Part shown: positions 10,124 to 29,900 of the stretch, piece after piece | How the letters are laid out: each line of letters begins with the position of its first letter | Numbering within the stretch: the first letter of the stretch is position 1 | Virus record (IMG/VR): IMGVR_UViG_3300032312_001355 | Coordinates: 1 to 64,000 of that record | From: a virus | Lineage: Duplodnaviria > Caudoviricetes | Direction: 5' to 3' (one strand) | Length of the DNA stretch: 64,000 nt | The notes under the pieces: generated by a model | The model's database searches: none | Told to the model about the DNA's origin: nothing | The model's input: only the letters and a program-made list of their open reading frames with translations | Program-made: the position numbers and the translations under genes

Positions 10124-10204
10124 TTGTTTCTCCCTTTGTGTTATTGAAGCCCCTTGCTTCAATAAGTAAAAGATAACCTACCTTCCTGCACTTTGCAAGT
10201 CTAT

Positions 10205-11910: not shown

Positions 11911-12203
11911 ATGATCTAACACTCCTACAATTTATCCTTTTAGGGCTAGCTACATATCGTGTGACTCGTTTAATGACTCGTGACATGATTACAGCCCCTA
12001 TCCGCAATGCCTTTTGGAAAAAGTTTCCGCCAGAGTCTTCCTATCTTGGCTACCTATCCACCTGTGAGTGGTGTTTTAGCGTTTGGATAGGATCAGGGTT
12101 CGTAATCTCGGCTATCATTATTCCATCAGTAACCTACATAGTTGCTACCGTTTATGCGGTATCTGCTATAGCAGGGCTGTTGACTGCATATGAAGATAAG
12201 TAA
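11907..12203 (+). CDS. DUF1360-like membrane protein
   Basis: LATYRVTRL..D.I..P.R....GYL..CEWCFSVW and hydrophobic C-terminus. Confidence 0.75.
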   Translation: MNDLTLLQFILLGLATYRVTRLMTRDMITAPIRNAFWKKFPPESSYLGYLSTCEWCFSVWIGSGFVISAIIIPSVTYIVATVYAVSAIAGLLTAYEDK

Positions 12204-12241
12204 TACTTCATATTCCGCAACTAGGATGACAAGGAGTTCCC

Positions 12242-13975
12242 GTGGGTTTATTTACTAATGACACACCTGATCAACCTACTCCACCATCCCAGCCGAAGCG
12301 CAAAAGAACTAAGTCAACATTTTCTCGTTCTACACAAGTAATTCAGACTCCAAAGCCTTCAACAATCTCATCTGTATTTACTAATACAGCGCAATCTGCA
12401 AGTTACTCCACTCCTAGAACTCTTACAGCTGCAGCAGCTCAAATTAAAGTTAATGACAAGGGTGAGTTTGAGCAATTTAGAATTCGTCGCTCTGCTGGAT
12501 CAAGTGCATGGCAAGCAGAAGCTTGGGAATACTACGACGCAATCGGTGAAATCAAGTATGCATTTAATTTAGTTGCATCAGTTGTTTCAAGAATCAGAAT
12601 TTATGCAGCAGTAATTGATGATCCATCAGAAACTCCAATCTCTGTTCGTCAATCAGAGCTAGTAGATGATCGTCTTGCTGCAGCAGCAGAACGTGCACTT
12701 GCACGATTAAATTCTGCATATGGTGGACAAGCAGGATTGCTTAGAGATGCCGCACTAAACCTTTCAGTAGCAGGTGAATGCTATCTAGTTCAGATGCCAG
12801 CTAAGCCATCACAAAAATTACCAGAGTCTTGGGATATTCGTTCTGTTGATGAAGTAACAACCGATCCTCGTGGCGGTTTTAATGTTATTGGACGACGTGA
12901 ACAGGCAACTACTTCACAAGGTGGCACAGATAAATCTTCTAAATTAGGTGGAAATGCATTTGTAGGACGAATTTGGCGTTCACATCCTCGTTACTCAGAT
13001 GAAGCAGACTCATCACTTCGTGGTTTGTTAGATCTCTGCGCCGAACTTCTTCTCCTCAACAGAACATTCCGTGCAACTGCACGTTCACGCCTAAATGCTG
13101 GTGCTCTTTACTTACCAGACGGACTTTCTGTTGCTGCACAAGCAGATGGTGATTTCCCTTATGACTCTGAAGACGGTATCGGTCCTAACTTTACTGCTGA
13201 AGAGGCAGAGGATGAGTTTGAAGAGCAGTTGATGGATGCTATGACAACTCCGATTCGTGACGAAGAGTCCGCATCAGCAGTTGTTCCTCTTATCATCCGT
13301 GGTCCTGCAGAACTTGGCGACAAGATTAAGCAATTCAAGTTTGAGCGTTCATTCGATCCACAACTTGCAGAGCGTTCAGACCGTGTATTAGAGCGCATCT
13401 TGCAAGGATTAGATGTTCCAAAGGATGTTGTAACAGGCCTTGCAAATGTTAAGTACTCAAATGCAATGCAGATTGATGAGTCACTTTACAAGGCACACAT
13501 CGAGCCACTTATGTTGCTCATTGCAGATGCTCTAACAGTTGTCTATCTTCGTCCATATCTTATCGCAAACGGTTATGAAGAAACACAAGTAAATAAAATT
13601 GTTGTTTGGTATGACCCATCAGCAATTGCAACTCGTAATGACCGTGCAACAGATGCTGACGCAGGATTTGACCGTATGGCAGTCTCTGCAAACACATGGC
13701 GTCGTGCTCACGGCTTCTCAGATGCAGATGCACCAACTCCAAAGGAACTTTCAATCAGACTTCTACAAGAGCGTGGTGTATTTACTCCAGAATTTACTGA
13801 AGCAATGCTTTCAGCAATTGCGCCAGAAGTTATTAACACAGTTCGCTCACAGCAACAGCAATCTTCAGTTGCCCCTATCCCGCCAGAACTTCAGCAAGCA
13901 CTTGATGCCGCAAGCGAAGGTGCAGAAGCTGCAGGTATTGCTACAGAAGCCCCAACAGAAGGGCAAGAGCAGTAA
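12242..13975 (+). CDS. Portal protein (cluster-B-like actinophage type)
   Basis: 577 aa; AWEYYDAIGEIKYA..ASVVSRIR, LSVAGECYLV, ERILQGLDVP..GLANVKYSNA motifs; first large gene of the head module. Confidence 0.8.
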   Translation: MGLFTNDTPDQPTPPSQPKRKRTKSTFSRSTQVIQTPKPSTISSVFTNTAQSASYSTPRTLTAAAAQIKVNDKGEFEQFRIRRSAGSSAWQAEAWEYYDAIGEIKYAFNLVASVVSRIRIYAAVIDDPSETPISVRQSELVDDRLAAAAERALARLNSAYGGQAGLLRDAALNLSVAGECYLVQMPAKPSQKLPESWDIRSVDEVTTDPRGGFNVIGRREQATTSQGGTDKSSKLGGNAFVGRIWRSHPRYSDEADSSLRGLLDLCAELLLLNRTFRATARSRLNAGALYLPDGLSVAAQADGDFPYDSEDGIGPNFTAEEAEDEFEEQLMDAMTTPIRDEESASAVVPLIIRGPAELGDKIKQFKFERSFDPQLAERSDRVLERILQGLDVPKDVVTGLANVKYSNAMQIDESLYKAHIEPLMLLIADALTVVYLRPYLIANGYEETQVNKIVVWYDPSAIATRNDRATDADAGFDRMAVSANTWRRAHGFSDADAPTPKELSIRLLQERGVFTPEFTEAMLSAIAPEVINTVRSQQQQSSVAPIPPELQQALDAASEGAEAAGIATEAPTEGQEQ

Positions 13976-15141
13976 TGTCTGATCAAGCAATTGACAAAGT
14001 TGTTACTTCACTTGTTTCTGCTGGAGATCCTTGCTGGGATGGTTACAAGCAAGTTGGAATGAAAGAAAAGAACGGCAAAATGGTTCCTAACTGCGTTCCT
14101 GTTGACGCTTCAGATGATTCAGAGGACTCAGAGTTTGCAGCAAAGAAAAAGAAGCGCACTATCTCTCAAACTCCTGCTCCTAAGAAAGACAGAATTAAAG
14201 GCTCTAGCAAAAACAAAAAAGGTTCTGCATCAGGAACTCGTAAAGTTAAATTTTCTGCAGCAGTAGAAAAGTCTTTGAAGAATAAAGTTGAACAGCACAA
14301 CGAAAAAGCAGGTAAGGGCCGTCGTGCAACTCTTGGAATGTTAAAAGCTGTTTATCGCAGAGGTGCAGGTGCTTACAGCGTCTCACATCGTCCAGGTATG
14401 ACACGCAATCAATGGGCGATGGGTCGTGTAAATGCATTTTTAAGATTGTTGAAGTCTGGAAAGCCATCAAACTCTGCATACACAACAGATAATGATCTAC
14501 TGCCTTCTGGTCACCCACGTTCAACTAAGAAATCAAACTCCATTGCAGCTTCAGCAGGTTTGGTTCCTGAAGAAAGCGATCTAGCAGAAGCGCTAGTCGA
14601 GATTGCAGATAAATATGGAAGATTCAATGAAGATGCCACAGGAATCTGGGCAGGATACACACCTCCAGCCGAAAACGATGTCAGAGGTATCGGAGTCAAA
14701 TGCTCTAACTGTGTTCTATACATGGGTAATGGCCAATGCCGAATCATCGAACTTGAAGTCGAAGACGAGGGTAAGTGTCGTTTCGCGGTTATCCCAGATG
14801 GCGTCGTTGATGTCGGAATTCTTGAAGGCGAAAAACTAGGAAACGATATTCAGTCACCACAAGAGCTAGCAAAGCTTGCTAATGAGTGGAGATATGAGCA
14901 AGAATTAAATATTGATCTTCTAAATGAAGAAGATTATTCATCTCCAGAAGAAGCAATCCTTGCTATGGCAGAGTATTCAGGTTATGGCTACGAAGCAGAG
15001 CATGCAATCCGTGCTTCTTGGCTTCGTGGTGTCCGTAATGGAGATAATCCTTTTAAAAGAGCATCATTACTGGCATCTCTTGGTTACGAAAGCTTAGATG
15101 GAGACCTTCTTCCAGTAAAGGCAGAAGAAGATGGAGAATAA
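13975..15141 (+). CDS. Multidomain head-associated protein
   Basis: CWDGYKQVGMK..VPNCVP motif; KAVYRRGAGA..HRPG..QWAMGRVNAFL..DLLP.GHP domain; CSNC..C..GxC Cys cluster. Confidence 0.7.
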   Translation: MSDQAIDKVVTSLVSAGDPCWDGYKQVGMKEKNGKMVPNCVPVDASDDSEDSEFAAKKKKRTISQTPAPKKDRIKGSSKNKKGSASGTRKVKFSAAVEKSLKNKVEQHNEKAGKGRRATLGMLKAVYRRGAGAYSVSHRPGMTRNQWAMGRVNAFLRLLKSGKPSNSAYTTDNDLLPSGHPRSTKKSNSIAASAGLVPEESDLAEALVEIADKYGRFNEDATGIWAGYTPPAENDVRGIGVKCSNCVLYMGNGQCRIIELEVEDEGKCRFAVIPDGVVDVGILEGEKLGNDIQSPQELAKLANEWRYEQELNIDLLNEEDYSSPEEAILAMAEYSGYGYEAEHAIRASWLRGVRNGDNPFKRASLLASLGYESLDGDLLPVKAEEDGE

Positions 15142-18100
15142 AATTGTTGTAAGCTCTTACAGAGCATATAGCAGTCGTGAACAGGCACGTTTTATTCGTC
15201 AAGAAGCAAATGTTTTACTTGAAAAAGCCAACGAATTTTCTACAACAAGTCGTCGAGTAAATCGTCGATCTGCATACAAGGTTCTTGCTCGTTCTCTACA
15301 AAAGACCAGAGGATTACCTTTCTCAATCCGTAAGCATCAAGCGCTTACAGAGCTTTCTAATTACATCTCTCTAGCTAAATACAACAAGGTTATCGGTTTA
15401 GAGGCATTTAATACAGACTTACTTCCAACATCACATCCAAGATCTACTCGAATGAACTCAATGAGTGCTTCTGCAATTGCAGAGGCTCAGATGCGTTGGA
15501 TTCTTGATGACCCACGAATTAAGGATGAGACAGTAAAGAGCCTTCTTGCTTCTGCAATGTTTTCTCCTATCGACTCTCCAGAGCATAAGTATTCAATGAT
15601 TCGGTTAGAGAACATGCCTCAGGGACAGGTTCCTGTTGAAGTTCTTCTAGCTGCAGCAAATCCTTTTGCTGGTAAGAACTCAGCTGCAGCTCGTCGTGCT
15701 CGTGAAGCTGTCCAGCTTTCTGACCGCTTTGAGCGCTGGATTAATATGGGAAGGTCTGCGGCTAAAAGAGCTACAGATGGTTTCCGTGTCTATGTTGCTA
15801 GAAACGATGGCTCTACAAGAAGTCTTTCTGGAGAACTACTAAACCAGAATATGTTTGATCCAAACCTTGTTGACATTGAAATGGGCAAGGGTAAAGTTGC
15901 AACAGTTCCTACAAAGCTCGGTGAAGGTCTTGAAGCTTTTATTAAAAGCAAGGACTCGCAAGATGGTTACTCTTCTGTAGAAGCAGAGGTGCCTAATGGT
16001 GCACAGGTACTTCCAGAAAACAGCATTGTTGTCTCAGATGCTCCAAGTATTTATCGCAAAGATGAGGGTAATAAATATACAGACGATAAATACGACATTG
16101 TTAAATTTGATAATCCTAAGGCTGCACAGACTGCTATTTCCGATGGACAAAAAAGAGCTGCAGAGCTAGATAAGCCAGAACCAAAGCTTCTTAAAAAGGG
16201 CGAAGTAGATGCAGACTCAGGTAAGCAGTTCTGGGATATCGAAGAACCAGTATTCGGTCTCTATCGTCGTGGAAAAAACACACCTCTTGCATTCGCTCAG
16301 TCTTGGAAAGATGTAAACAATGAGATCCTTCGTGACGAACCTTTCCTTGATGAAGATGAAGGTCGTGAATATACACGCCCTGAGCCTCAGACAGCAGACG
16401 ATAATGTCCCACTTCTAGATCAAGCAGATGAAATTTTTAAGCCAGCTAAAAAGAAATCTGAAAAGAAAGAAAAAGTTTCTTCATTCCCATATGAAGTTCC
16501 AGATAGAGCATACGAATTTAATCCAAACGAAGAGTACACACCAGAGTTTGAGTTTGATGATCCTGTATCAATTGCAAACGATCAGACACCAGAAGAACTA
16601 GAAGATGCTCTTCTTACATCAGTAGAACCTGTTAGTGATACTGAAAAAGCAACTGGCTACGCTCCAATTAACTTTACAGATGGCCGTGAAAGAGATGTTC
16701 CAGCAGAAGCTATCGCTGCAGCAATTCGTGAGCAAGGTGGAGATGCTGAAATGGCTCTTGCACAGGCTTACGACAAGATTGCAGGAGATAACAAGAACCA
16801 AGAAGCCCTTGATAAATCAAGAGGTGCTAAAGATGAGAAAAAATTAGAAGAAGAAACTAAAAAAGCAGATAAGATTCTTAAGGATGCAGAAAAAGAAGCT
16901 AAAAAGATTAAGAAGCCTACATCTGATGAAATTATTGAAGAAGAGATTCAAAAGCCAGAGCCAAAGGCAACTACTGCTGAGCCAGAAGATGCTCCTACAG
17001 AGGGCTTAGAAGATCTTGAAGATGTATCTGAAGACACATATGTTCCTCCTTTGCTTGAAGGTCTTTCAGAAGAAGAGTTAGCATCCTTTAAGGAAGATGG
17101 AGACTACCGACCATTCTTGCCAAAGAACGCGGATATAGATACACCTGAAGGACTTTACAAGTTAGATCCAAACCCAGTTGACCCTAAAGAAAACTACACT
17201 CCAAAAGATCTTCAAGGTGAAGTACCACCAACTACAGCTTTAGATTTGTCTGCAAATACAGTTAAAGATTTAACTAATGAACTGAGCAACGCTATTAATG
17301 GCACTGGTGAACACGGTGCTGGTTTTGGAGAGATGCTAACCGAAGACCCTAACGGTGAACTTGTAAACTCTCCTGTTCCTGCAGAAGCTCTTCGAGATGC
17401 TCTTCAACTTAAGGGTAAAGATACAGATGCAATTATTGAAAAGATTAATAAGAAGGCTGCAAAAGCAAAGGCAAAAATAAAGCCTCCAGTTTCTGAAGAA
17501 CCAGAAGTAGAGCCAGATACAAAAGAAGAAGAGCCTAAACCTAAAAAGGCAGTTACCTACAAGCGTTCAGGTAATCGCACTCTTCTTCGTGCTGGCAAGG
17601 GCGGAGCATTTAAGGATAAAGAAATTGCTGACTTCCTTGACGAGAATGGTTTTGAATGGACTGGAACTGTTGAAAGAGATGGACAAACTCTTCCAGTTAA
17701 TTCAGAGTCTGCTACACAGACTGATGAAGAATTTAAGGCTTTTGCTCGTGAACTTCGTGATCGCTTCGGTATTGATTTAGAGCCTCGTGCTGCAACTGCA
17801 AAGTCACCTGCTCAAGAACCAATTGATATTGATGCGCCAGCTCCTGAACCAGAGGTGCCAACTCCTGCACCTACTCCAGAACCAACTCCAGAAGAAGTTA
17901 CACCAGAAGAGCCAGTCGTAACTCCTGAAGAAACACCAAAACCTGTTGAAGATGAAAAAGATAATTGGATTAAGCAAGAAGATGGTACTTGGGTCAACAC
18001 CAGTACTGGAGAAATTGTAGAAGAGCTTCCTGAAGGTGCTACTGAAGGAAAACCTGCACCAGAAGAGCCAACAGTTCCTACACCAACTCCTGAAGAAGAA

Positions 18101-21100
18101 ACTCCAGTTGTTGAAGAAACTCCTAAGACAGAAGAAGAAAAGAACTTCATTAGAAAAATATCTGCCTTACTGTTTGATCAAGTAGGCAAGGCTCTCTCTG
18201 CGGCTAAAGCAGATAAGGGATTAAAAGCTCTTGAAGGATTAACAGATCGACAACTATATGACTTGTTCGGTCCTTTCAATGTATTAAAGCTCAATGAGCT
18301 TCTTAAGAGAGCTATGGAAAGCGATAAGGAAAGTGTCTACGGAAATCGCAAAGATATGATTTCCAAGATTATGTTCCTTAAGTATGGTGCTGGATTTAAG
18401 AGCAATGAAACTCCGTTTATGCGTAAGTCAATGGATGAGTTTGAAAATAGTTTAATGCGTAGCTCTACTAAAGAACTAGAACAGATTCTTGATCTTTACT
18501 ACGATGACATGGATGCAAGAGTAGCTGAACAGAACGAAGAAAAAGAAAAAGCAGATGAGCTAAAAAGAGCACGAGAGCGTCGCCGTAAAGCTGCTGAAGA
18601 TAAACTTCTTGAGAAGTATGGGGACGATGCAGATGCTGAAAAACCAGAAGAGGAAGTAGAGCCTGAGCCAGAAGTAGAGACTCCAGCTGAACCACCTCTA
18701 CCACCTCTTTCTGCTGACGCTAAAGAGATTCTTAAAGCTCTTATTGATAGACGCCGCAAGATTCAAAGAAAAATTGATAAAGCAGATCTTGATGAGACAA
18801 CTACTGCTGCAAAGAAAAAAGCTCTTAAAGATGAGCTTGATGAAGTAACTAGAATTATTGATTCTCTTGTCCTAGGTGAAAAACCAGCCGAGAAGCCAGA
18901 AGAAACTCCTACTGCAGAGGTTAAGGAAACAGAAAAGCCTCAAGAACCACAACCAAGTATTACTTCAGTTTTTGCACCTAACTTAAAAGCTGGAGATGTT
19001 TTCAAGGATGACTACTTTACAATTGTAAGTATTGAAACAGGTCTTACTAAAGAAAGAGATATGGAGATAGTTCCAGCAACTAGACTTACTGGATACTATC
19101 CAAACTCTGTAGAGCAGAGCACCAAACTTTGGGCAGATGATACAGAAGTAGATGTGTATCGTGGAGTTACACCTCCATCAAAGGGAGATCTACCAGTACT
19201 TAGCAAGCCAGAAATGAAATCCTTTAGTCCTACTGGAAAACTTCAAATAATTGGAACGTTTAAGAGAAAAGACGGCTCTGAAGGAAAGAAGTGGGGCCTA
19301 AAGAACCCAGCTGACGTAGAAAAATACAACGCAGCTATGGATGAGTATAAAGAAGAACGTAAACGTCGTATGGCGCTTTGGACTCCTCCAGAGGTTACAA
19401 CTGTCAATAACGATAATGCAAATACCCCTGTTAACCCACCCGAGAAATCATCTTATGTATCTAACGTCCCAGCATCTGACGTTCAAGTTGGCGATATTGC
19501 ATTTAGAAAGAACAAGTACGGGGCTAGAGAGTTCTTCACGGTTACCAAGGTTCTTGGAACTAAAGATGGAGTTACATCTCTTGAAGGACACTATGTTGGA
19601 CATCAAACACAGGTTAAGGAATGGCGTGAAGCTACTCCAATCGACATTATTCGTGGAGAAGTAAATCTTCCAGCATCAGGAGACAAAGAACCTCTAGATA
19701 GACCAGATAAATCTCTTCCTAACTATTCTCAACTTGAAAAAGAACGTCAAGAAAAAATTGCAGAGGCAGATAAGGGTTATACCTTTAATGCTGAAGGATC
19801 TATCGAAGCTACACCAAAAGTATCCAAACCAAGACTACCTGCATTCTATGGGTCAGCAGAAGAGCTTTTGGCTCTTGGAGATGGAGCTAATATTCAATCA
19901 GCTCTAGATGCTAGAGAAAATGGATATGTAGTTTTTGACTTTGAAACTTTAGGAAACGATGTACAGAATGTATTAAATCCAGACGCACCTATCCAAGCAG
20001 CTGCAGTTAGATATGTTGGTGGTGAAAAGGTAGAAGAGCTTAACATCTACATTAATCCTGAGAAGCCTTTGGGCGATTACTATTATGAAACAGATAGTGA
20101 AGGAAATAAAGTTCTTCGTGCAAATAGAATGAGAGATGCCGAAGGCAATCCAATAACAGATGAATGGTTAGCTACACAGCCAAGTATTCAAGAACAACTA
20201 CAAAAACTTGTTGACTTCTTTGGACCAGACCCTATTCTTGTTGGACAAAACATTGGCTTTGATTTAAACGTGCTACAACGCTGGTCTCAAAAAGTTGGAA
20301 TTGACTTCGAACTAAAGGGATCAATTGACACGCTACCAATTGCTCAAGCACTACAAAAAATTGAACGTGGAACAGTTACATTCCCAGAGAATCCTGCAGA
20401 AGGAGATGAAGCTCTCTCTGCTCTAGGAAATGCTTGGACATGGAGTGGAACAGCGTGGAAAGCACCTTCTAATGCTCTTAATCAATTAGCGGAGCGTCTA
20501 GGAGTAACTACTGACTCTTCTGATTTCCACAATGCATTATTCGATGTTGGAGTAACTGATCAAGTTTTAAGAAAGCTACTTGAAAATCTTAAAGCTGGCA
20601 ACATCCCTACTGGAGGAAGCGCAGCTTATGCAGAAGGATTTAAGAAGTGGGTACTTTCTCTAGCTGAAGAAAAGAAGAAAGCTTCTAAGAGAGAAGCTGA
20701 CAAGATTGTTTCTGAAGGACTTGCTGGAAAACCTGTAACTGGTGAAAATGTTGATGCAGCTGTAGATGAAGTAAATTCTGTAGTAGAAGAGCCTGTAACT
20801 ATTGTTGAAGGCGAAGAATCTTCAGACTCTCCAAAGGAATATGTTTCACCTCTATATGGAGATAAACTTAGTGAAGAATGGGTTAAAGATCCAGAAAACA
20901 CAGACTTTATCTCTAACGCAAGAATAAAAGACTTAAAAGTCTCAGACTTTATTACTGGCTCTGATGGAGAGCTTTACGAAATTATTAAACTTGAAGATGA
21001 TGAAGTACAGCCGGGCAACGCAGTAAGAATTATTAGAGCAAATCTTAATACTGGTCAGATTCTCGAAGAAAGACAATCAGAAAGAGATGATGGAGGAACT

Positions 21101-24100
21101 GGATTCTTCCTAGTTGGAAAAGTTGATGGTGGCTTCTATCGCAGAAAAGACAATGCCGATAAGAGCAATGCTCAAATAGAAACAGAAACTATCGAAGCTA
21201 TTCCAGATGTTGATCCAGTTGTTATCCCTGAAGTACAGCCTGTTAAGGGTGAGAATGTAACTCCTGAGCAGGTAGCAACAGTTGTTAACGATGCAATTGA
21301 TGCGATCACAACCTCTAAGCCAGATGCATCTATTGAAGAAGCTGTCAAGGGTCTTAATGTTGATGAAACCATTAAAGAGGCAGTAACTGCTAAGCCTGAA
21401 AACGCAGAAGGAGAAACAGGTTTCCATATCTCCTCTGACGGAGTTACTTTAATTAAGCCTGGAGACAAGGTTATCCACGCTAAGACTAAGAGAACTGGAA
21501 CTGTAAGCGTTCTCCTTCCTTCATATCAGGGTGGAAAATATAAGAATTATGTAAAAGTTAGATATGACGATTCTAATGAAAGAGAGCCTGTAGCATCTAA
21601 GAATCTTTCAATTGTTTTCCGACCTGAATTTGTACCAGTAGTTAAGCCTAAAGGTGAGACAACTGTTAAAGATATTTCAAACAAGATCAAGGATATTCAA
21701 GGAACAACACCTGCAGAAGGTTCAGTAAATCCTGATGAGCTTGCAGAGAAGTTTAAGTCTGCAGAAAAAGAACGAGATGACAAGGTAAAGGAAACTAACT
21801 TTGTAAAGACATCTACTTCTGTAGTTGCAAAGGTAAAAGAAAATCTTCCAGCACGAGGAACAACTGAAAGCTCTCTTCCAAGTCTTAAAACTGGAAATCT
21901 ATTCGATGTAACTTTTGCAATAGACAAACCAACTGAGAAAGAGCTTAAAGATAAAGGCGTAGACTTAAGCCTAGATTCAGCAGATGACTTAATTGTATTT
22001 AGAGCAACTAAAGATTTATTCCTCAGAAATCAACCTGTTGCAACTATTAAACCAGACGGATCAATTATCTGGCGTACCGAGAACGACAAGCGTTCATTCT
22101 CATTAGAGCTTGAAAGAGTTCTTCAAGATTTCATAGATCCAGTAACAAATCTTAACGCAATGATTGTTATCAATGAACCAGAAGATACTGAAGGAACAGA
22201 CGCCGATAACTTTGGCAACGGAACTCTTCTTGGTGAATCAGAGAGCTCATTTGACTATAACAACATCTCTAACTTCCCTCCAACAGAGGAGCAGAAGAAG
22301 ATTGTTGATGCAATTATGACTGGTGGGGATGTCATAGTTCAAGCTTTGGCTGGCACTGGAAAGACTTCTACTCTAGTTCTTGCTGCAAAGAGAATTTTGG
22401 CAGAAAATCCAGCTAAAAAACTTCTTTACATTGTATTTAATAAGGAAACTGCTGAAGAAGCTCAAGGCAGAATGCCTCAGAACGTAGATTCTAGAACTAT
22501 GGACAACATTGTCTACTCAATGCTTCCAGATAATCACAAGGAAAGAAATAAACTTAGCAGTGTCTTTAAGATAAATGAGAGAAGTCTTATCGATTACACT
22601 GACTATGTAAACCTATTTGAGTACTACCAGTACGAGCCAGTAACTGTATCTATCAGAGGCACAGAAACAACTCTAGGAAGAAACGATCTTGTTCAAGAAA
22701 TAAGAGAAGCAGTAGATAGATTTGCAATTTCAGCAGACGATGTTTTAACTGAAAAGCATTTCACTAAGAAAACTCCATTCTACGACACAGTTCCACCAAT
22801 TCTTGTCGAGTATGCAAAGAAAATGTGGAAAGATGTAAGTACTGAAGAAGGTTGGGACCCTTCCTCAAAGAAGCTGTCAAGAATTGATTATTCACATATG
22901 CTTAAAGCTTGGGCACTAACTAAGCCTCAATTTATAGATGGTTTAAACTCTGGATCAACTAGCACTAAGCAATTTAAAGATAGAAAGAACGATATGTTCT
23001 TCTTTGATGAAGCTCAGGATATGAACCCAGTAATTGTAAAACTTTTGGCTGACCAAGAAGGAATTCAAAAGGTATATGTTGGAGATAGTAATCAAGCTAT
23101 CTATGCATTCCGTGGAGCTGTAGATGAGCTTAATAACGTAAAGAATGCAAAAGAGCTATACCTAACTCAGACATTCCGTTTCGGTGCAAAGGTTGCAGGA
23201 ATAGGAAACAGATTCCTAACTCTACTTAACTCTAAAAATAAGGTAGTAGGAAAGCCTGGAGAAGACGACGGCGAAATTGTAGAGAATATGGAAGACCCTA
23301 CTGCAATTATTGCTAGATCAAACGGTGGAGTTATCGACAGTGTCTTTGACCTATTAGCTAAGGGAAAGAACCCAGGATTAAACTTAGAGACCTACTACAA
23401 GGCTATGTCATATGCAAAGTCTGCAGCATGGTTGATTGCAGCTAACAAGGGAACACCTGCATACAAGAAGCCAAAACTCCATGAAGATTTAGCAGGTTTC
23501 CAAAACTGGAACGAAGTCCTAAAGGCAGTTCAGGATGGCAAATCAGTAGGTGGAGCGATGTACATGGTTCGTCTTCTAAGAGATAGAAAGATGACTATAA
23601 AAGAGTTGGTAGATAAGCTCAACAGTATTACTCCTATCCGTGGTACAGGGTTTAGAACAGATGCATACGTTCCTGTAGGCAAGGAAGCACTCGCAGACGG
23701 AATTACTGGAGAGCTCGGTACTGGTAGAACTAATAGTGGGTTTAAAGGAAAGCTTACATACACAATTAAAGACGGAGTAATATCTTTCCAAAACTCAAAG
23801 TCATATAAAGATTTTCTTTTGAAGGACTTTACATATAACCCAGAAAAATTCTCTTTTGAAAAGGCTTTTGGAAAAGAGCAAGAAGAAGATATCCTTAATT
23901 TAATTAACGATGTTAGACGATGGGTACAAAACTATCCTCCAAGAATCCCTATTGACGCTGAAATTATTACAGCACATAAGTCAAAGGGTAAAGAATGGGA
24001 TCGCGTAAAGCTTTTTGATGATTTCAAGCAACCTGAGATCAATGATGAAGGAGAGATGCAACTTCCTGACCCAGAAGAACTCAGAATCTCATACGTTGCG

Positions 24101-25972
24101 GCTACTCGTGCAAAGAAGTCTATTGACATTGGAGAAAACCTAAAGTGGATTTACGATGTCACATCTGAAGATGATGAAAAGCCTCAGCTAACTGACGTCG
24201 AAAAACTTAGCGGAATGACCGTTACACCAGATCCAGAACCTGTAACTCCAGAAGAGGTTGGCAACGAGGTTGTCAAGGCTAGAAAGATTACAGATCAGAA
24301 GACTTTGGAAGTTGCTAACCGACTAATCGAACTTATTGAAAAGGGCGTTGTTCCTTGGACAAAGGGATGGTCTGGTGGAGGCTTCCTTCCAACAAACGGA
24401 AAAACAAACAAGAGTTATCAAGGAACTAACACACTTGCTCTCTGGGCAGCAATGCATCTAAATGATTGGACAGACCCTAGATTCTTAACCTTCAATCAAG
24501 GTAAATCACTAGGAGGCTTTGTTCGTAAGGGCGAGACAGGCACAAAGATTCTAAAGCCTAACGTTGTAACTAAAGAAGTAAAGCAGCCAGATGGAAGCAT
24601 TAAAAAAGAAGGATACATCTACTTTACAGAAGTTCCAGTATTTAACGTTTCTCAGTTTGAGAAACTAAACCTTCCACCTTTGGTAAAGAAGGATCCAGTA
24701 CCTGTATTAGATATTGAAACTCAAATACTAGAGTCATATAAAGATCACCCAGAGATTATTTACCGTCCTCAAGATAAGGCTTATTACTTACCTTCTGTAG
24801 ACAAGATTTACTTACCTTTAAGAGAGCAATTTGATACTAGTATCGGTTTCATAGAGACATTTTTCCACGAACTAGGTCACAGTACAGGACACGTTTCACG
24901 TCTAGGTAAAGAAGGAAAGCGCAAGGATCTTCAAGATAATTATGGCAACCATAAAGCAAGCCGTGGTGAAGAAGAACTTATTGCAGAAATTACAGTTGCA
25001 CTTATTGCTGCAGAGTTTGGTGTTGAAATTGACTGGGGAAATACAGCTTCATACGCACAAGGATGGTTAAAGCCTCTCAAGGATGATCCGGGAATGATTA
25101 TCATTGCTGCAAAGCAAGCTCAAGATGCAGTTAACTGGATGCTTGGAATTAAGCCAGAAGATAAGAACGCAACTCCAGAACCTGATGCACAAGCACCAGA
25201 AGCTGGCGAAGGCGTAGGCAGTGAAGGTCAGACTGGAGAGCAAATTGCTGATCAAAAACCTGAAACTCCAGAAGCAACTCCAGAACCTAATGTTGGAGAG
25301 CAAGGCCAAACTGGAGAAGAGATTGCTAAAAATACTCCAAAGAATAAAGATGCCTCTAAACAACCTACAAAACTTACTGTCAATGATGAAGAATACGATC
25401 TATGGGATGACATTAACTATGACCGTACTTCAGAAGAAGGAAAAGATAACGATAATTTAGAGTCTGCACACGGAATTTTTGCCTCAAGAATTCTAGAAGG
25501 ACAAGAGCTAATTAAAGATAGAAATGAAATTGGAAAATACATTGCCGACATATTGAAAAAATATGGTTACGGCAACAAGCTCTTCTATTTGGCTGGAGGA
25601 TCTGTAGCCGATAAGATGCTAGGAGATGACCCTTCATGGGAAGGTTCCGATGGAACTCCTTATGGTGGAGGAATTGAAGCTGGTATAGGTCTTGCAAATA
25701 GCGAAGCTTTCGCAGATGGAGATCCTTTAAAGGGTGTCGAGTTCCCTGTAGTTCTGGTTAGAAAAAGAGGAATTTCTAAGGTAGCTTTGCTTCACGAAAT
25801 AGCTCACCTTATGGAAGGTGGATGGAAGAGCAATACTGGAGGAGGCCATAATCAAGCATGGCACCAGACATTGCTGACATTGCTACGACAAGAGGGTTTT
25901 CAAAAAGAAGCTAATCTACTAGCATTAACCATAGGAGAAGTGAAAGGAGATACAGGTGTTATCAATCCCTGA
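15131..25972 (+). CDS. 3613-aa polyvalent protein: DEDDh 3'-5' exonuclease, UvrD-like SF1 helicase, ArdC (ssDNA-binding plus zincin), C-terminal HExxH domain
   Basis: Exo VFDFET/QNIGFD/HNALFD (~19922-20590); helicase ALAGTGKT, FFDEAQD, VGDSNQAIYAFRG, TAHKSKG, YVAATRAK (~22274-24150); ArdC GVVPW..YQGTN..FLTFNQ..GGFVRKGE and HELGH (~24290-25150); HEIAH..H..W (25793-25870). Confidence 0.9.
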   Translation: MENKIVVSSYRAYSSREQARFIRQEANVLLEKANEFSTTSRRVNRRSAYKVLARSLQKTRGLPFSIRKHQALTELSNYISLAKYNKVIGLEAFNTDLLPTSHPRSTRMNSMSASAIAEAQMRWILDDPRIKDETVKSLLASAMFSPIDSPEHKYSMIRLENMPQGQVPVEVLLAAANPFAGKNSAAARRAREAVQLSDRFERWINMGRSAAKRATDGFRVYVARNDGSTRSLSGELLNQNMFDPNLVDIEMGKGKVATVPTKLGEGLEAFIKSKDSQDGYSSVEAEVPNGAQVLPENSIVVSDAPSIYRKDEGNKYTDDKYDIVKFDNPKAAQTAISDGQKRAAELDKPEPKLLKKGEVDADSGKQFWDIEEPVFGLYRRGKNTPLAFAQSWKDVNNEILRDEPFLDEDEGREYTRPEPQTADDNVPLLDQADEIFKPAKKKSEKKEKVSSFPYEVPDRAYEFNPNEEYTPEFEFDDPVSIANDQTPEELEDALLTSVEPVSDTEKATGYAPINFTDGRERDVPAEAIAAAIREQGGDAEMALAQAYDKIAGDNKNQEALDKSRGAKDEKKLEEETKKADKILKDAEKEAKKIKKPTSDEIIEEEIQKPEPKATTAEPEDAPTEGLEDLEDVSEDTYVPPLLEGLSEEELASFKEDGDYRPFLPKNADIDTPEGLYKLDPNPVDPKENYTPKDLQGEVPPTTALDLSANTVKDLTNELSNAINGTGEHGAGFGEMLTEDPNGELVNSPVPAEALRDALQLKGKDTDAIIEKINKKAAKAKAKIKPPVSEEPEVEPDTKEEEPKPKKAVTYKRSGNRTLLRAGKGGAFKDKEIADFLDENGFEWTGTVERDGQTLPVNSESATQTDEEFKAFARELRDRFGIDLEPRAATAKSPAQEPIDIDAPAPEPEVPTPAPTPEPTPEEVTPEEPVVTPEETPKPVEDEKDNWIKQEDGTWVNTSTGEIVEELPEGATEGKPAPEEPTVPTPTPEEETPVVEETPKTEEEKNFIRKISALLFDQVGKALSAAKADKGLKALEGLTDRQLYDLFGPFNVLKLNELLKRAMESDKESVYGNRKDMISKIMFLKYGAGFKSNETPFMRKSMDEFENSLMRSSTKELEQILDLYYDDMDARVAEQNEEKEKADELKRARERRRKAAEDKLLEKYGDDADAEKPEEEVEPEPEVETPAEPPLPPLSADAKEILKALIDRRRKIQRKIDKADLDETTTAAKKKALKDELDEVTRIIDSLVLGEKPAEKPEETPTAEVKETEKPQEPQPSITSVFAPNLKAGDVFKDDYFTIVSIETGLTKERDMEIVPATRLTGYYPNSVEQSTKLWADDTEVDVYRGVTPPSKGDLPVLSKPEMKSFSPTGKLQIIGTFKRKDGSEGKKWGLKNPADVEKYNAAMDEYKEERKRRMALWTPPEVTTVNNDNANTPVNPPEKSSYVSNVPASDVQVGDIAFRKNKYGAREFFTVTKVLGTKDGVTSLEGHYVGHQTQVKEWREATPIDIIRGEVNLPASGDKEPLDRPDKSLPNYSQLEKERQEKIAEADKGYTFNAEGSIEATPKVSKPRLPAFYGSAEELLALGDGANIQSALDARENGYVVFDFETLGNDVQNVLNPDAPIQAAAVRYVGGEKVEELNIYINPEKPLGDYYYETDSEGNKVLRANRMRDAEGNPITDEWLATQPSIQEQLQKLVDFFGPDPILVGQNIGFDLNVLQRWSQKVGIDFELKGSIDTLPIAQALQKIERGTVTFPENPAEGDEALSALGNAWTWSGTAWKAPSNALNQLAERLGVTTDSSDFHNALFDVGVTDQVLRKLLENLKAGNIPTGGSAAYAEGFKKWVLSLAEEKKKASKREADKIVSEGLAGKPVTGENVDAAVDEVNSVVEEPVTIVEGEESSDSPKEYVSPLYGDKLSEEWVKDPENTDFISNARIKDLKVSDFITGSDGELYEIIKLEDDEVQPGNAVRIIRANLNTGQILEERQSERDDGGTGFFLVGKVDGGFYRRKDNADKSNAQIETETIEAIPDVDPVVIPEVQPVKGENVTPEQVATVVNDAIDAITTSKPDASIEEAVKGLNVDETIKEAVTAKPENAEGETGFHISSDGVTLIKPGDKVIHAKTKRTGTVSVLLPSYQGGKYKNYVKVRYDDSNEREPVASKNLSIVFRPEFVPVVKPKGETTVKDISNKIKDIQGTTPAEGSVNPDELAEKFKSAEKERDDKVKETNFVKTSTSVVAKVKENLPARGTTESSLPSLKTGNLFDVTFAIDKPTEKELKDKGVDLSLDSADDLIVFRATKDLFLRNQPVATIKPDGSIIWRTENDKRSFSLELERVLQDFIDPVTNLNAMIVINEPEDTEGTDADNFGNGTLLGESESSFDYNNISNFPPTEEQKKIVDAIMTGGDVIVQALAGTGKTSTLVLAAKRILAENPAKKLLYIVFNKETAEEAQGRMPQNVDSRTMDNIVYSMLPDNHKERNKLSSVFKINERSLIDYTDYVNLFEYYQYEPVTVSIRGTETTLGRNDLVQEIREAVDRFAISADDVLTEKHFTKKTPFYDTVPPILVEYAKKMWKDVSTEEGWDPSSKKLSRIDYSHMLKAWALTKPQFIDGLNSGSTSTKQFKDRKNDMFFFDEAQDMNPVIVKLLADQEGIQKVYVGDSNQAIYAFRGAVDELNNVKNAKELYLTQTFRFGAKVAGIGNRFLTLLNSKNKVVGKPGEDDGEIVENMEDPTAIIARSNGGVIDSVFDLLAKGKNPGLNLETYYKAMSYAKSAAWLIAANKGTPAYKKPKLHEDLAGFQNWNEVLKAVQDGKSVGGAMYMVRLLRDRKMTIKELVDKLNSITPIRGTGFRTDAYVPVGKEALADGITGELGTGRTNSGFKGKLTYTIKDGVISFQNSKSYKDFLLKDFTYNPEKFSFEKAFGKEQEEDILNLINDVRRWVQNYPPRIPIDAEIITAHKSKGKEWDRVKLFDDFKQPEINDEGEMQLPDPEELRISYVAATRAKKSIDIGENLKWIYDVTSEDDEKPQLTDVEKLSGMTVTPDPEPVTPEEVGNEVVKARKITDQKTLEVANRLIELIEKGVVPWTKGWSGGGFLPTNGKTNKSYQGTNTLALWAAMHLNDWTDPRFLTFNQGKSLGGFVRKGETGTKILKPNVVTKEVKQPDGSIKKEGYIYFTEVPVFNVSQFEKLNLPPLVKKDPVPVLDIETQILESYKDHPEIIYRPQDKAYYLPSVDKIYLPLREQFDTSIGFIETFFHELGHSTGHVSRLGKEGKRKDLQDNYGNHKASRGEEELIAEITVALIAAEFGVEIDWGNTASYAQGWLKPLKDDPGMIIIAAKQAQDAVNWMLGIKPEDKNATPEPDAQAPEAGEGVGSEGQTGEQIADQKPETPEATPEPNVGEQGQTGEEIAKNTPKNKDASKQPTKLTVNDEEYDLWDDINYDRTSEEGKDNDNLESAHGIFASRILEGQELIKDRNEIGKYIADILKKYGYGNKLFYLAGGSVADKMLGDDPSWEGSDGTPYGGGIEAGIGLANSEAFADGDPLKGVEFPVVLVRKRGISKVALLHEIAHLMEGGWKSNTGGGHNQAWHQTLLTLLRQEGFQKEANLLALTIGEVKGDTGVINP

Positions 25973-25976
25973 AGAT

Positions 25977-26078
25977 ATGGAAGAGGCTATTATGCCAAAA
26001 GCTTTATCTGACAATCAAAAGTCATTTCCAGCAATGAAAGAATCTGAAAAAGACTCTGAAAAAAAGGATAATGTATAA
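25977..26078 (+). CDS. Small hypothetical protein (33 aa, or 28 aa from ATG 25992)
   Basis: Read by hand; stop overlaps the next ATG (TAATG). Confidence 0.45.
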   Translation: MEEAIMPKALSDNQKSFPAMKESEKDSEKKDNV

Positions 26079-26215
26079 TGAGTCTTACAGATAAAGAACT
26101 TTACACAGAGGCAATGATTGCTGCATACAGAAGGCTTATGGATGTAGCTTTCTGGGACCCAGCAGCAGCCGATGATGACGAAGATGCTGAACCTAAAAAG
26201 GAAGAGGATAAATGA
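26078..26215 (+). CDS. 45-aa acidic hypothetical protein
   Basis: Read by hand; coupled to both neighbours (TAATG, ATGA). Confidence 0.6.
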   Translation: MSLTDKELYTEAMIAAYRRLMDVAFWDPAAADDDEDAEPKKEEDK

Positions 26216-26919
26216 AAACCGTAGTGGTTAAGTCTTATCCTGAAGAAGGAATGGCTCTTGCATACCTAAAAGGTGAAGATGTTGTAAAGCAACTAGTTTT
26301 TTATAGTGAACGATTTGGGATTTCTACTCTCATAGATGGCAAGTTTCGCTCATACGCAGAAGGCGATGTAAGTCTTGACGGTAAGTCATTTATCTACATT
26401 GAACCAGCTAACTACAAAGTTGTCCGTGAAATGTTTCAAAGAGCAGAGTCAATGGGTAAATATCTTACTTACAAAGATGTAGAAAAATACAGAGTAGATT
26501 ATGTACTTAAGAAAGCTATGACAGCAGCTGTAGAGACATCTGAAGGATGTCCTCCTGCAACCCAAGATATTGGTATTAATCTTGATAATCGTAAGAACGC
26601 TATTGACACCGCTATGTACGGACCTCTCAATCCTCTAGAACCTAACGATGAGTACTGGGAAGCGATTGCTGACGAATGGTCAGTTGATAAAGAGACTGCA
26701 AAGAAGCAACTTTGTGGCAATTGTGCTGTATTTATTCAGACTCCAAAGATGCTTGATTGTATTGCTTCTGGGCTTGGTAATGAAGAAGGAAATGATGCTT
26801 GGGGCTCAATTGATGCTGGAGATTTAGGGTATTGTGAAGCATTCGACTTTAAATGCGCTGCATCCCGCACATGTCGTGCATGGGTCGCTGGTGGACCAGT
26901 AACAGAGGAGAGCAAGTAA
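26212..26919 (+). CDS. Head-module protein with Cys-rich C-terminal domain
   Basis: CPPATQD..N..NR..A..YGP.NP..CGNC..GYC..FDFKCA..RTC.AW. Confidence 0.75.
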   Translation: MKTVVVKSYPEEGMALAYLKGEDVVKQLVFYSERFGISTLIDGKFRSYAEGDVSLDGKSFIYIEPANYKVVREMFQRAESMGKYLTYKDVEKYRVDYVLKKAMTAAVETSEGCPPATQDIGINLDNRKNAIDTAMYGPLNPLEPNDEYWEAIADEWSVDKETAKKQLCGNCAVFIQTPKMLDCIASGLGNEEGNDAWGSIDAGDLGYCEAFDFKCAASRTCRAWVAGGPVTEESK

Positions 26920-29900
26920 TGGACTATGTTGGCCGCAACGGTTCTAAGGTACTTTTCATCTCCGAAACATTGGGAACAGTTGTTGATGAGTTCCAAAATG
27001 TTGTGCTTGAGCTAGACCTTAAAGAACCTCTTATTGCAGCCACCTACTGGGATAGTAACTCTGAAAGACCTACTGGACCTGCAGTAGAGCTTGCAGCAGC
27101 AGCTCTAACAGATTTAGATATTAAAGTTTTTTCAAACAATGACCGTATGTACACAATTCCTGACTCCGTTGTTGCAGAAGCAAAACGCGGTCTTGAGTGG
27201 CGTAAAGAAGAAAATCGCGGTGGAACATCTGTTGGTCTTAATACTGCTCGCACACTAGCTCGTGGCGGTCAAATTGGTATTCGTAAACTTCGTCATATTG
27301 CTAAATACTTTCCACGTCACGAAGTAGATAAAAAGGGAACTGGCTACAAGCCGGGACAAAAAAATTATCCATCCAATGGTCGCATCGCTTGGGCTCTTTG
27401 GGGTGGAGACGCTGCTCGTTCATGGGCATCTGCAATTGTAGAACGTGAAAATAAGAAGGCTAAGTCAAACTCAATTCTTGCGGGTGGATTAGATCCTATG
27501 CAATATGAGATGCCAAAGAGAGTTAACTACGATTCTTTTATTACCTCAAAGACAATGCCTGAAGATAATGTAATTGAATTTTTTGCCCGTATTCGTTTAG
27601 ACGGATCTGGTATTGATCGCCTGTATCGTATTGAGCCAGCAGGTCACATTTATGTGTGGGATGACGGCGACTGGGATGACATGGGCATGACAGATGCTGA
27701 TATGTCTATGTATGACAAAATTCTTGACGACCCTAACGATAGAACACCTTGCGGACAAATTCCTGTAGATACTGAAACAGCACTTTTCATTGCAGCACTT
27801 CTAGATAACGAACCTTTTATTGCACATAAGGTAGATAAGTTATACCCAGAAGAAAGCAAGATTTATGAAGAAGCATATCCAGATCTTGATATGGATCTAC
27901 TAGATGATTTAGCTCTTCAAGATGAAATGTCTGACTCATGGGATTTTGTAGACGACAGTTTAACTGCTGCAGGAGAAGCTCCAAGTTCTGGATCTAGGGC
28001 AGACAAAGATGGAGATGGAAAGCTAGATAGTGATTTTCTATCCGAAAAGGCTTCTGCTCAACTTCGTGACAAATCAGGTAAATTTGCAAAAATGGGTGGA
28101 CGAGTAGTTATTGGCGGGAACGCAAAGTATCAAGGAAATATTCGTTCTTTAGATGCAACAACACAGACCGTTAAGGTAGAGCTTAATAACGGAAATATGA
28201 TAGATATTCCTGCATCAATGACAGAGCCTTTAGAGTCATATGTTCCTATCCCTAATGCAGTTGCAGAAGGAGAGTTAGATACTTCTGGAATTCTTGGTGA
28301 GCCTCGTACTCCAATGGATTCTCCAATTCGTATGCCAGGAACTCTTCCTCCACTTAACGCATCGAATCTTAATTTAATGCTTACAAACTATCCACAGTGG
28401 GTGTCAGAGCAAAGACTTTCTCCAGACCCACAACCAACTCAAGCTCCTGCAAGTTCTAATCTAAAAACATCAGCACCTCAGCAACCTCAAGGTGTTGAAA
28501 AAGATGTTGCTAAAGACAATCCTTTATATAAGTATTACCCAGAAAAGTTTACAAATTGGACTAAGGAAGTAAATGCTTACAATCTTCCTATCCTTAAGCC
28601 TTGGCTTGAGTCTGGACCAGACAGTCGTCGCAAATACAATCCATTTGTAGATCCAGAAAAAACAAAAAAATTTGTTGAAGAAAAAGGAATTAAATCCCCA
28701 AAGCTTGACTCTAAGGGTCGTCCTCTAAAGGCTTCTGCTGGTGAAGAAAAAGCTATGACACCAGAGACTTCTGATGTATCTATCTTGCATATGGCAATCG
28801 TTTCTCCTGATGATCCTCAGGCAGTAATGGATTTAGTTGCTTTAGTTCCAGCATCTAATAAAACAATTCAACCAACCACATATAGTCGTAAAGATAGTAA
28901 ATGGGTACACGATCCTCAAATCTTAAATGATCTTCAAAGTGCAACTCCTCCACCAGTAATTGTTTTAGATGATGCAACTTTAGTAGATGTACTAGAGCAA
29001 GTTGATAATAAAGCAATCACTGCTGCAGGTGGTGCAGACCGTAATCGTGGAAATGCTGAAAAGCTTCGTCGTTATTGGACCTATGGTAAGGGTGCAGCCA
29101 AGATTCGTTGGAAGACTCCAGGAGACTGGACTCGTTGCTATCGTCAGTTAGCTAAATATATGGGTCCTCGTGCCAAGGGCTATTGCGCCCTTCGTCACAG
29201 AGAGATGAATGGTTATTGGCCAGGAGATAAAAAGAATCAAGAGATGGGCGCTTTTAGTGTCAATACCTTGCACAATTACGATGAACTTTTGAGCACTTTT
29301 GTTATGCGTGCTAAAGCTGCAGATGCTAGAGCAAGAGTAATGACAGCTGGCGGAGATATGGAAAGCCAAGAAGGATCTGAATTCTTCATCCCTCTCGTTA
29401 TACCTGAAGAAGTCGAATCTGGAGACGGAAGAGTTATCGTTAAAGATGCTCTTTCTATTAGAGAGCTTCCACTACCTCTTTTATGGCAAATTCAAACAGG
29501 AGAAGGCCACAATGGGTCTGTCGTAGTTGGAAAAATTGTTTCAATGGAGAGAGTCGATGGCGGAATTGGAAACGCTAAAGGATTTTTCGACAAAGGCTCT
29601 TATGGGCAAGAAGCTGAACGACTAGTTCGTGGTGGCTTCATTCGTGGTGTTTCGGCAGATCTCGATCAATTTGAGGGTGACGAAGAGGTGCCAGAGGTTA
29701 AAGAAACATCTGACACTAAGGTAGAAAGCGGTAAAATAAAGATCAAGAAAGCACGAGTCATGGCTGTGACTTTGGTGCCGAAGCCAGCTTTCCAAGAATG
29801 CTCAATTCAACTCGCCAATGAGCTTGGCGGAGAAGAGGAAGAAGTGAATATCCCTGACGGCGTATATGTCGAAGGAGTAAACCCTCTCGATGCTTCGGCG

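Follow-up and report, generated by a model that had tools for sequence, protein, structure and literature searches.

A cysteine-free polyvalent protein of 3613 residues in the head operon of a tailed phage, a probable capsid passenger

The DNA analysed here, positions 1 to 64,000 of the IMG/VR virus record IMGVR_UViG_3300032312_001355 (Duplodnaviria; Caudoviricetes) and called the window below, carries within its head genes one very long gene, whose product we refer to as the giant. The gene is a single intact open reading frame (ORF; 15131..25972, + strand) that starts with ATG, comprises 3613 codons and runs through 10.8 kb without an internal stop; its first 11 nt overlap the end of the gene before it, which encodes a DUF5824 protein of 388 amino acids (aa). 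Neither TGT nor TGC occurs in frame, giving 0 Cys in 3613 aa. This zero count and the position of the gene between portal (12242-13975) and maturation protease (a protease fusion, 26853-31688) had both been put forward in a first-pass annotation of the same DNA, and both proved correct. The features that we distinguish within the gene are given below, with residue numbers of the giant and, for modelled parts, the predicted local distance difference test score (pLDDT).

15131..25972, +: whole gene, 3613-aa Cys-free polyvalent protein (ORF, Pfam, 49 colinear homologues)
15131..15775, +: header part A, residues 1-215, three helices (15-84) followed by residues 85-214, highly conserved and of low pLDDT (model, profile search)
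15212..15481, +: residues 28-117, homologous to a DUF5824 region, with DLLPxSHPRST at 96-106 (blastp, hhalign)
15665..15757, +: residues 179-209, a degenerate copy of A(R/K)xxxxQ(L/R)RD(K/R)xG(K/R)(F/W)AxMGG (hhalign, motif census, residues 6-30 of Mimi gp77)
15773..16360, +: header part B, residues 215-410, beta-rich, pLDDT 75-89, no structural match, present in 71/121 giants
16448..16810, +: repeat a1, residues 440-560, alpha/beta, pLDDT 82-92, present in 111/121 header-bearing giants
17048..17410, +: repeat a2, residues 640-760, homologous to 440-560 (hhalign)
17819..18370, +: Pro/Glu-rich linker and variable region, residues ~897-1080, an indel hot spot among close relatives
18962..19255, +: repeat b1, residues 1278-1375, no Pfam match (hhalign with b2)
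19436..19735, +: repeat b2, residues 1436-1535 (hhalign with b1)
19916..20560, +: DEDDh 3'-5' exonuclease, residues ~1596-1810, with an insert between Exo II and Exo III (Pfam, 2p1j)
20828..21640, +: conserved region of unknown fold, residues ~1900-2170 (conservation; no Pfam match)
22280..24130, +: UvrD/FBH1-like superfamily 1 (SF1) helicase, residues ~2384-3000 (Pfam, phrog_1967, 9xzj)
24308..24640, +: ArdC-N single-stranded DNA (ssDNA)-binding domain, residues 3060-3170 (Pfam, 6i89)
24764..25117, +: MPTase-PolyVal zincin of the ArdC module, residues 3212-3329 (Pfam, 6i89, HELGH)
25199..25336, +: linker with the twin motif G(S/E)(E/Q)GQTGE(E/Q)IA at residues 3363 and 3389; extra domains lie here in close relatives
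25448..25969, +: C-terminal HEIAH...H domain, residues ~3440-3613, likely minimal zincin-like (AlphaFold2, VIA, atlas)

Pfam matches were counted when they lay above the curated gathering cut-offs. On this basis RNase_T (PF00929, DEDDh) was found at residues 1600-1807, split by an insert, UvrD-helicase (PF00580) at 2386-2665 with 68.7 bits, UvrD_C (PF13361) at 2944-2998 with 32.6 bits, ArdcN (PF08401) at 3060-3170 with 87.5 bits against a cut-off of 22.6, and MPTase-PolyVal (PF18818) at 3212-3329 with 87.4 bits against a cut-off of 27.5. PHROGs assigned the helicase to phrog_1967 (E 9e-76) and an anti-restriction family, phrog_7245, to the giant as well (E 1e-58). The best PDB sequence match was ArdC itself (6i89, E 3e-31, with its residues 12-282 of 297 aligned), and the list also held the UvrD-family helicase FBH1 (9xzj, E 8e-26) and a PolC-type exonuclease (2p1j, E 4.5e-7). 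An alignment of 24 diverse homologues served to judge motif invariance: the DEDDh pentad (D1603, E1605, D1711, H1800, D1805), the helicase Walker A (2407-2414), DEAQD (2626-2630) and motifs III, V and VI, and the ArdC zincin residues H3246, E3247 and H3250 (HELGH 3246-3250) together with E3280-3282 were unchanged in all 24. The giant thus possesses SF1 motifs I, II, III, V and VI with both RecA-like halves, Exo I-III, and a nearly full-length ArdC, so that the exonuclease, helicase, ArdC-N and MPTase domains named by the first-pass annotation, and its statement that the catalytic motifs of exonuclease, helicase and ArdC zincin are intact, are borne out. UvrD-type helicases travel 3'-5' on ssDNA, and DEDDh enzymes take off 3' nucleotides.

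A second zincin at the C-terminus, also named at that stage, stands on motif conservation and has modest support as a fold. HEIAH (3555-3559) and H3573 were invariant in 20 of the 24 homologues, namely those having the domain. An AlphaFold2 model of residues ~3440-3613 (pLDDT 80, predicted template-modelling score 0.79) retrieved almost only zincins in a VIA structural search, with minimal zincins on top (jannalysin Z 5.4, abylysin 5.3, selecase 5.1, SPRTN 4.7, Wss1 4.1); these Z scores (5.4-4.1) are modest, and Foldseek against the PDB gave no match below E 0.76. The model further resembles three unannotated families of small proteins from Actinomycetota and phages (template-modelling score 0.63-0.80, by target). 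A minimal zincin-like fold is likely for this domain, though not proven. Its origin as a duplicate of the ArdC MPTase was considered and rejected, as hhalign aligns the HExxH helix only, with 20% probability.

Outside these domains, two pairs of internal repeats emerged from profile comparison: residues 440-560 with 640-760 (hhalign 95.5%, E 1.5e-8) and residues 1278-1375 with 1436-1535 (98%, E 2e-13), neither pair being detected when the giant was compared with itself by BLAST. Searching Pfam with the pieces 1-450, 451-1150, 1151-1600, 1951-2380 and 3361-3613 returned no significant match, an ESM Atlas feature search with residues 1270-1590 gave no usable match, and some 1500 residues of the giant belong to no known family. 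No RNA polymerase family appeared among its Pfam or PHROG results. Phage_Mu_F gave no Pfam match at E<=0.1 for the whole giant or at E<=1 for the pieces, and no LPD Pfam domain was found either.

The metagenomic source and the extreme length of the gene raise the question of whether it is an assembly chimera or a mis-called ORF, as the first-pass annotation had itself considered. A whole-length search recovered about 49 colinear giants of 2.1-4.2 thousand residues (kaa), 95-34% identical and with the same four Pfam domains, in JGI, ENA, NCBI and Logan assemblies of independent metagenomes and on contigs up to 139 kb. IMG/VR, the database proposed at that stage for a homologue search, added 29 further loci, and conservation extends along the full length of the giant. 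With colinear homologues from four assembly sources, the IMG/VR loci and an open 10.8-kb frame, we reject a chimera or mis-call and regard its probability as negligible. Among deposited phages the gene is nearly without counterparts: megablast of the giant gene found no DNA match, tblastn with residues 1-1700 matched only the metagenome-assembled Actinomycetia phage DSL-LC01, and tblastn with a distant family member (P0060) again found the header in DSL-LC01 alone.

The N-terminal header links the giant to a much larger family, hundreds of similarly Cys-poor giants whose genes lie beside the portal gene in uncultured actinophages. When 1.84 billion representatives were searched with a profile of residues 1-560, 319 clusters matched, 166 with E<=1e-30; nearly all listed proteins have the match starting within their first 40 residues, and most of those listed are 1.9-7.0 kaa long. 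We then ran hidden Markov models cut from the giant's family on 147 further representatives (P0055-P0201), 121 of which are giants. Header part A was present in 147/147. Cargo was far less uniform: among the 121 giants the exonuclease occurred in 58, the helicase in 27, ArdC-N with MPTase in 12 and the terminal zincin in 2, and 59 had none of these. A Pfam sample of giants without exonuclease, helicase or ArdC yielded NUDIX, GNAT, PI3/PI4-kinase-like and WYL domains and otherwise nothing, and other relatives carry an ADP-ribosyltransferase (ART), a GNAT or a second ArdC. Sequence comparison thus presents the header (residues ~1-415, plus the repeated 120-aa domain) as constant and the cargo as interchangeable. 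In one related phage, the header-bearing giant is succeeded by another giant ORF (L043 20978-28051, >3356 aa, weakly matching Zeta_toxin), and some phages may have two such giants.

Two stretches of the header recur in other head genes. Residues 28-117, including DLLPxSHPRST, align with a region of the DUF5824 protein encoded just upstream (blastp E 2e-5; hhalign 80%, E 1.4e-5). The second motif, at residues 179-209, was established by profile-profile comparison (hhalign 94.5%, E 8e-8), and a regular-expression census found 13 copies of it in five genomes, all in portal-to-capsid genes: in the protease fusions, which all have another variant close to their C-terminus, in the giants, in a 466-aa protein of DSL-LC01, and at the extreme N-termini of gp77 and gp79 of Arthrobacter phage Mimi. 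The AlphaFold2 model of the header reached pLDDT 66, and residues 85-214 are its most conserved yet least confident part, as expected of segments that fold on a partner. Structural searches brought no specific match: Foldseek found no match for the header model in PDB and BFVD at E<=0.001, and a wide VIA search returned only generic three-helix bundles over residues 8-88, with the beta domain and residues 450-560 barely covered.

The genes around the giant are those of a phage head, and the following are referred to below.

12242..13975, +: portal protein (phrog_776, E 1e-109)
13975..15141, +: 388-aa DUF5824 protein with a C-terminal 4-Cys cluster, having the first header segment in common with the giant (Pfam, blastp, hhalign)
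26212..26919: 235-aa protein with a 4-Cys cluster (context)
26853..31688, +: prohead-protease fusion, probably starting near 26919, with the RDxxGKF motif at nt 28065 and 31206
31857..33932, +: major capsid protein, Cys-free (PHROG, Cys count)

After the giant come the 235-aa Cys-cluster protein, the protease fusion, capsid protein, major tail protein, adaptor and tape measure, a layout of siphovirus type. A promoter and terminator scan of 10000-29999 gave fewer sites than shuffled sequence and none flanking the giant on the + strand, so that, with the 11-nt overlap upstream, the giant reads as part of one late operon. TerL was seen in DSL-LC01 and in a relative (L043), not in the 64,000-nt window. 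By capsid protein, the nearest deposited genomes are DSL-LC01 (75%) and Microbacterium and Arthrobacter phages of ~190 kb; the slot of the giant is occupied in DSL-LC01 by a 3289-aa 'hypothetical protein' and in Mimi by a 2709-aa 'DNA helicase' (gp77). Relatives at 37-38% identity retain the order portal, (ferritin), DUF5824, giant, protease fusion, capsid, and the same portal-to-capsid order recurs in distant header-bearing giants with other cargo, in DSL-LC01 and in Mimi. One related helicase giant (P0052, locus L035; 3352 aa, 7 Cys) itself starts with a Peptidase_S78 prohead protease (residues 23-168) and has a related UvrD-type helicase at residues 1586-2347.

These data bear on the view that the giant is a late-expressed replication, recombination or repair enzyme that merely lies in the head operon and never enters the particle. 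Exonuclease and SF1 helicase are a normal repair and recombination pairing, and the closest helicases of cultured phages are annotated 'DNA helicase', some of them in replication modules. However, the phage has a replication module of its own downstream, with PolA, an SNF2 helicase, a PD-(D/E)XK nuclease, AAA_24 and DUF669, in agreement with the separate replication genes noted by the first-pass annotation. The portal-protease slot is fixed across deep divergence, the header has motifs in common with the prohead protease and also leads giants without any DNA enzyme, and the Cys exclusion described below is family-wide, unlike the situation in free-standing helicase homologues. We consider a purely intracellular enzyme of this kind quite unlikely.

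Several further observations were made on the head operon. Both genes flanking the giant (13975-15141 and 26212-26919) encode a 4-Cys cluster of the form CxxC...C...C; the DSL-LC01 counterpart of the 235-aa gene is annotated as a high-potential iron-sulfur protein, and in the more distant relatives L041, L042 and L043 a Ferritin-family (PF00210) gene or domain lies beside or is fused to the DUF5824 gene. These look like metal- or redox-type proteins within a head operon. The 1611-aa protease-fusion ORF probably begins later than listed: its first 22 codons (MRCIPHMSCMGRWW...) look non-coding-like, and an ATG at ~26919 overlaps the stop codon of the gene before it. In the capsid protein (691 aa) there is an N-terminal extension of ~260 residues, most other phage capsid matches beginning near residue 260, and the segment of it covered by a local alignment has many Glu and Met residues; the extension may be an integral, delta-like scaffold domain and a candidate partner of the basic RDxxGRF motif. 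The portal gene of a related phage (L042 2399-5359) contains an intein (Intein_splicing, Hint_2).

The absence of Cys from the giant is improbable by chance. Cys makes up 0.75% on average in the remaining 31 ORFs of the window, which gives P(0 in 3613) ~1e-12, and against the tail and head structural proteins of the window only (~0.24% Cys) the value is ~2e-4. The first-pass annotation had contrasted the giant with Cys-rich flanking head proteins, which is right for its two immediate neighbours, the only Cys-rich ones (6/388 and 7/235, in CxxC-type clusters), but not for the major capsid protein (691 aa) and the tape measure (1094 aa), both Cys-free, as are two large downstream ORFs, unannotated in this analysis (42138-44762 and 46841-48457). 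Low Cys in this window is therefore a trend across virion proteins that becomes absolute in the giant.

The exclusion extends across the family. Forty-six of the 49 colinear homologues have 0 Cys; of the remaining three, P0032 and P0038 have exactly two and start with a 'DPCWxGYK' extension, a motif of the upstream DUF5824 gene, and P0051 has one. The 147 header-bearing representatives contain 102 Cys in 394,640 residues (0.026%), with 66 of the 121 giants lacking Cys and 117 having <=2; Mimi gp77 has 0 in 2709 aa and the DSL-LC01 giant has 2. Many two-Cys giants (P0134, P0143, P0145, P0155, P0159, P0169, P0172 and others) have one conserved pair in common, which lies in a motif resembling AAAWNCGG...GPCSVPSVD that is absent from the giant of the window; the pair may represent one disulfide or metal site that is tolerated. 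Helicase homologues that stand alone in phage replication regions have 13/622 and 4/495 Cys (0.8-2%), and two plasmid ArdC regions sampled as a control have 0 in ~280 aa. Among proteins established as ejected, N4 virion RNA polymerase (vRNAP) has 0/3500, so that the first-pass precedent of a Cys-free N4 gp50 holds, and T7 gp15 and gp16 have 0/747 and 0/1318, compared with 1.1-2.7% in the replication enzymes of N4 and T7. We found no paper on the header-bearing family, or on a Cys rule that would hold generally for proteins that are ejected.

The giant gene is also a divergence island, as seen in two related loci (L034 and L033) relative to window positions 12242-33932, a region in which portal and DUF5824 protein rank with the best conserved products. 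Compared with L034, the portal is 95%, the DUF5824 protein 87%, the protease fusion 90% and the capsid 93% identical, the giant only 38%, and the L034 giant lacks the terminal zincin. In bins of 100 residues, the first 100 residues are 71% identical and the rest 15-64%, mostly 35-45%; a slow first 100 residues and a fast remainder fit a constant docking end with arms-race cargo. Close relatives differ in having entire extra domains at two sites, residue ~900-1160 and residue ~3359, the latter as in P0002 (89% identical; its residues 3310-3550), where an ART-like insert of ~240 aa lies just before the twin motif. Divergence and insertion of this kind form the pattern of a host-conflict gene whose product docks to a conserved structure. 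The twin G(S/E)(E/Q)GQTGE(E/Q)IA motif itself (residues 3357-3402), which precedes the terminal zincin, is almost invariant and could be a cleavage or junction site. ART domains (PF03496) occur inside header-bearing giants of freshwater phages (P0002, P0054 and P0124, the last in L042). Freshwater phage ARTs have been reported as anti-grazer 'Trojan horse' toxins against eukaryotes (PMC6802176); their location inside head-module giants favours an Alt-like role over an anti-grazer role and suggests that these ARTs may be directed at the bacterial host.

The same data speak to the idea that the giant is a capsid-internal protein that is not delivered, serving as an internal body or spacer or processing or holding DNA ends at the portal, and is left behind or discarded at infection. 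The evidence for head association, that is synteny, the protease fusion and the header motifs, would apply to it equally, non-ejected virion proteins of the window are likewise Cys-poor, and the basic RDxxGRF motif and ArdC-N could bind packaged DNA. But the variable, effector-like cargo (ART, GNAT, NUDIX, kinase-like, ArdC) fits host conflict, as does 38% identity set against 87-95% in the neighbouring products, which does not suit a structural job, and an ATP-dependent helicase would be without fuel inside a capsid. An undelivered role is unlikely in our estimation.

Comparison with known systems places the giant among the polyvalent proteins of phages and conjugative elements defined by Iyer et al. 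(2017; PMC5512222), in which MPTase and ArdC-N are the commonest hubs and whose phage versions are predicted to be packed in the capsid. It resembles them in joining many effector-type domains in one chain, in its MPTase and ArdC-N hubs, in its place among late virion genes and in the ART, GNAT and NUDIX domains of its relatives, and where the class calls for at least two conflict-type domains it has four that are Pfam-significant and a fifth, zincin-like one. It differs in that UvrD-type helicases are mentioned, in the portions of PMC5512222 at hand, only for giants of actinomycete plasmids, in being led by a new header without a MuF or LPD Pfam domain, and in its Cys content, the word 'cysteine' being absent from PMC5512222. 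The first-pass annotation had not recognised the domain combination from described phages; this is upheld for the architecture, although the category was already described (PMC5512222). New relative to the class are the architecture (DEDDh exonuclease, UvrD-type helicase, C-terminal ArdC and second zincin), the header and the Cys rule.

P1 DarB combines a methyltransferase with an SF2-type helicase. It is, like the giant, very large and equipped with a helicase, and it is packaged in the head as an anti-restriction protein, as the giant would be; the giant has an SF1 UvrD-type helicase and no methylase, there is no header homology, and P1 is a myovirus. T4 gp2 and Mu N are DNA-end protectors, T4 gp2 being an established case of a packaged protein that protects incoming DNA ends, but neither has homology to the giant or an enzyme string; nor do T7 gp15 and gp16, which like the giant are Cys-free and are ejected through the tail. 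DarB loading depends on other head-associated proteins, DarA and Hdf (PMC12810830, PMC9024508). Residues 3060-3335 align over nearly the whole of plasmid ArdC (R388, pSa; PDB 6i89/6sna), with HExxH and Glu kept, and the ArdC region matched 3118 plasmid records, 1746 of them conjugative; in the window, however, ArdC is a single part of a 3613-residue protein encoded among phage head genes. ArdC-N binds ssDNA and ArdC relieves restriction (PMC7213743). SPP1 gp7/Mu F shares the position right after the portal gene, and MuF domains are known as carriers of variable effector domains (PMC5512222); with no Phage_Mu_F Pfam match and no fold match in the Foldseek and VIA searches of the header model, the relation appears to be positional only.

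N4 gp50 offers an analogy in form, with ~3500 aa, zero Cys, packaging in the virion and injection. It is an analogue and not a relative, since its cargo is an RNA polymerase, N4 is a podovirus and no sequence similarity was found. Genome entry drawn by transcription is known for N4 vRNAP and T7 RNA polymerase, and the giant might similarly be an entry motor or pilot on the leading DNA end, its helicase or translocase pulling the genome in while exonuclease and ArdC-N hold the 3' end. Size and Cys absence match N4 vRNAP, in which an MPTase region is needed for encapsidation (PMC5512222), and the helicase motifs are strictly conserved; yet with a helicase in only 27/121 header-bearing giants, entry cannot generally depend on it, and we hold such a motor to be quite improbable.

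We favour, with a probability of roughly 0.6, the reading that the giant is a polyvalent protein which enters the prohead by means of its header and accompanies the DNA into the cell to protect or process it. The first-pass proposal of a packaged, ejected protein with DNA-processing and anti-defence functions is partly supported: packaging and ejection are made more credible by a header common to Cys-poor giants, by motifs in common with head proteins, by synteny after the portal gene and by the relative fused to a prohead protease, and the hub domains ArdC-N and MPTase stand in a portal/terminase late-gene context, the context in which packaging of such proteins was predicted (PMC5512222). 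The giant would be made together with the head proteins and taken up by the prohead through header motifs that recur in the prohead-protease fusion and the DUF5824 protein. It would stay in the capsid and then leave, together with the DNA and in the form of an extended chain, by way of the tail, which would explain the exclusion of Cys. In the cell, ArdC-N and the 3'-5' SF1 helicase would engage single-stranded or end regions of the incoming genome and the DEDDh exonuclease would trim 3' ends, while the two zincins may process the polyprotein into functional fragments or act against restriction or defence proteins of the host; the net effect would be incoming DNA that is protected and processed. 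Packaging, ejection, substrates and the anti-defence effect are what we infer from sequence.

Several points weigh against this reading. Presence in the virion is likewise inferred, and the sole deposited header-bearing phage, DSL-LC01, is a metagenome assembly. The Cys poverty of capsid protein and tape measure, which are not ejected, points to 'virion' more strongly than to 'ejected' as what low Cys indicates. The header has no detectable likeness to MuF/SPP1 gp7 or to a solved fold, so that its docking role rests on context. A siphovirus tail lumen holds the tape measure, and the passage of a chain of ~400 kDa is assumed by analogy. R388 ArdC is needed in the recipient and not in the donor (PMC7213743); it acts when expressed in the recipient, and travel of ArdC with DNA is therefore no general rule. 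ArdC-N is described in PMC5512222 as mostly N-terminal and typical of conjugative elements, whereas here it lies near the C-terminus of a phage giant.

A broader proposal, which we advance tentatively and regard as possible but on balance doubtful, is that the header marks an unrecognised capsid-loading and ejection system of actinophages, in which the header would serve as a docking module, its linear motifs recurring in the prohead protease and a DUF5824 protein, and interchangeable enzyme strings of 2-7 kaa would be packed at the portal and threaded through the tail. Cys exclusion would then be a physical requirement, and helicase, exonuclease and ArdC would form an escort of the genome end, perhaps a motor. 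If so, Cys absence would be a sequence signature for ejected proteins in any phage; the rule is easily computed and testable as a predictor of proteins that pass a tail or a secretion channel. The combination of a 3'-5' exonuclease, a helicase of 3'-5' type and ArdC suggests a specific way in which an entering genome end may be shielded. Should the header be the loading signal, it would give a handle on how phages of the abundant freshwater Actinobacteria arm their particles with large enzymes, and its family would amount to a catalogue of hundreds of candidate counter-defence cargos, most of them without a known domain.

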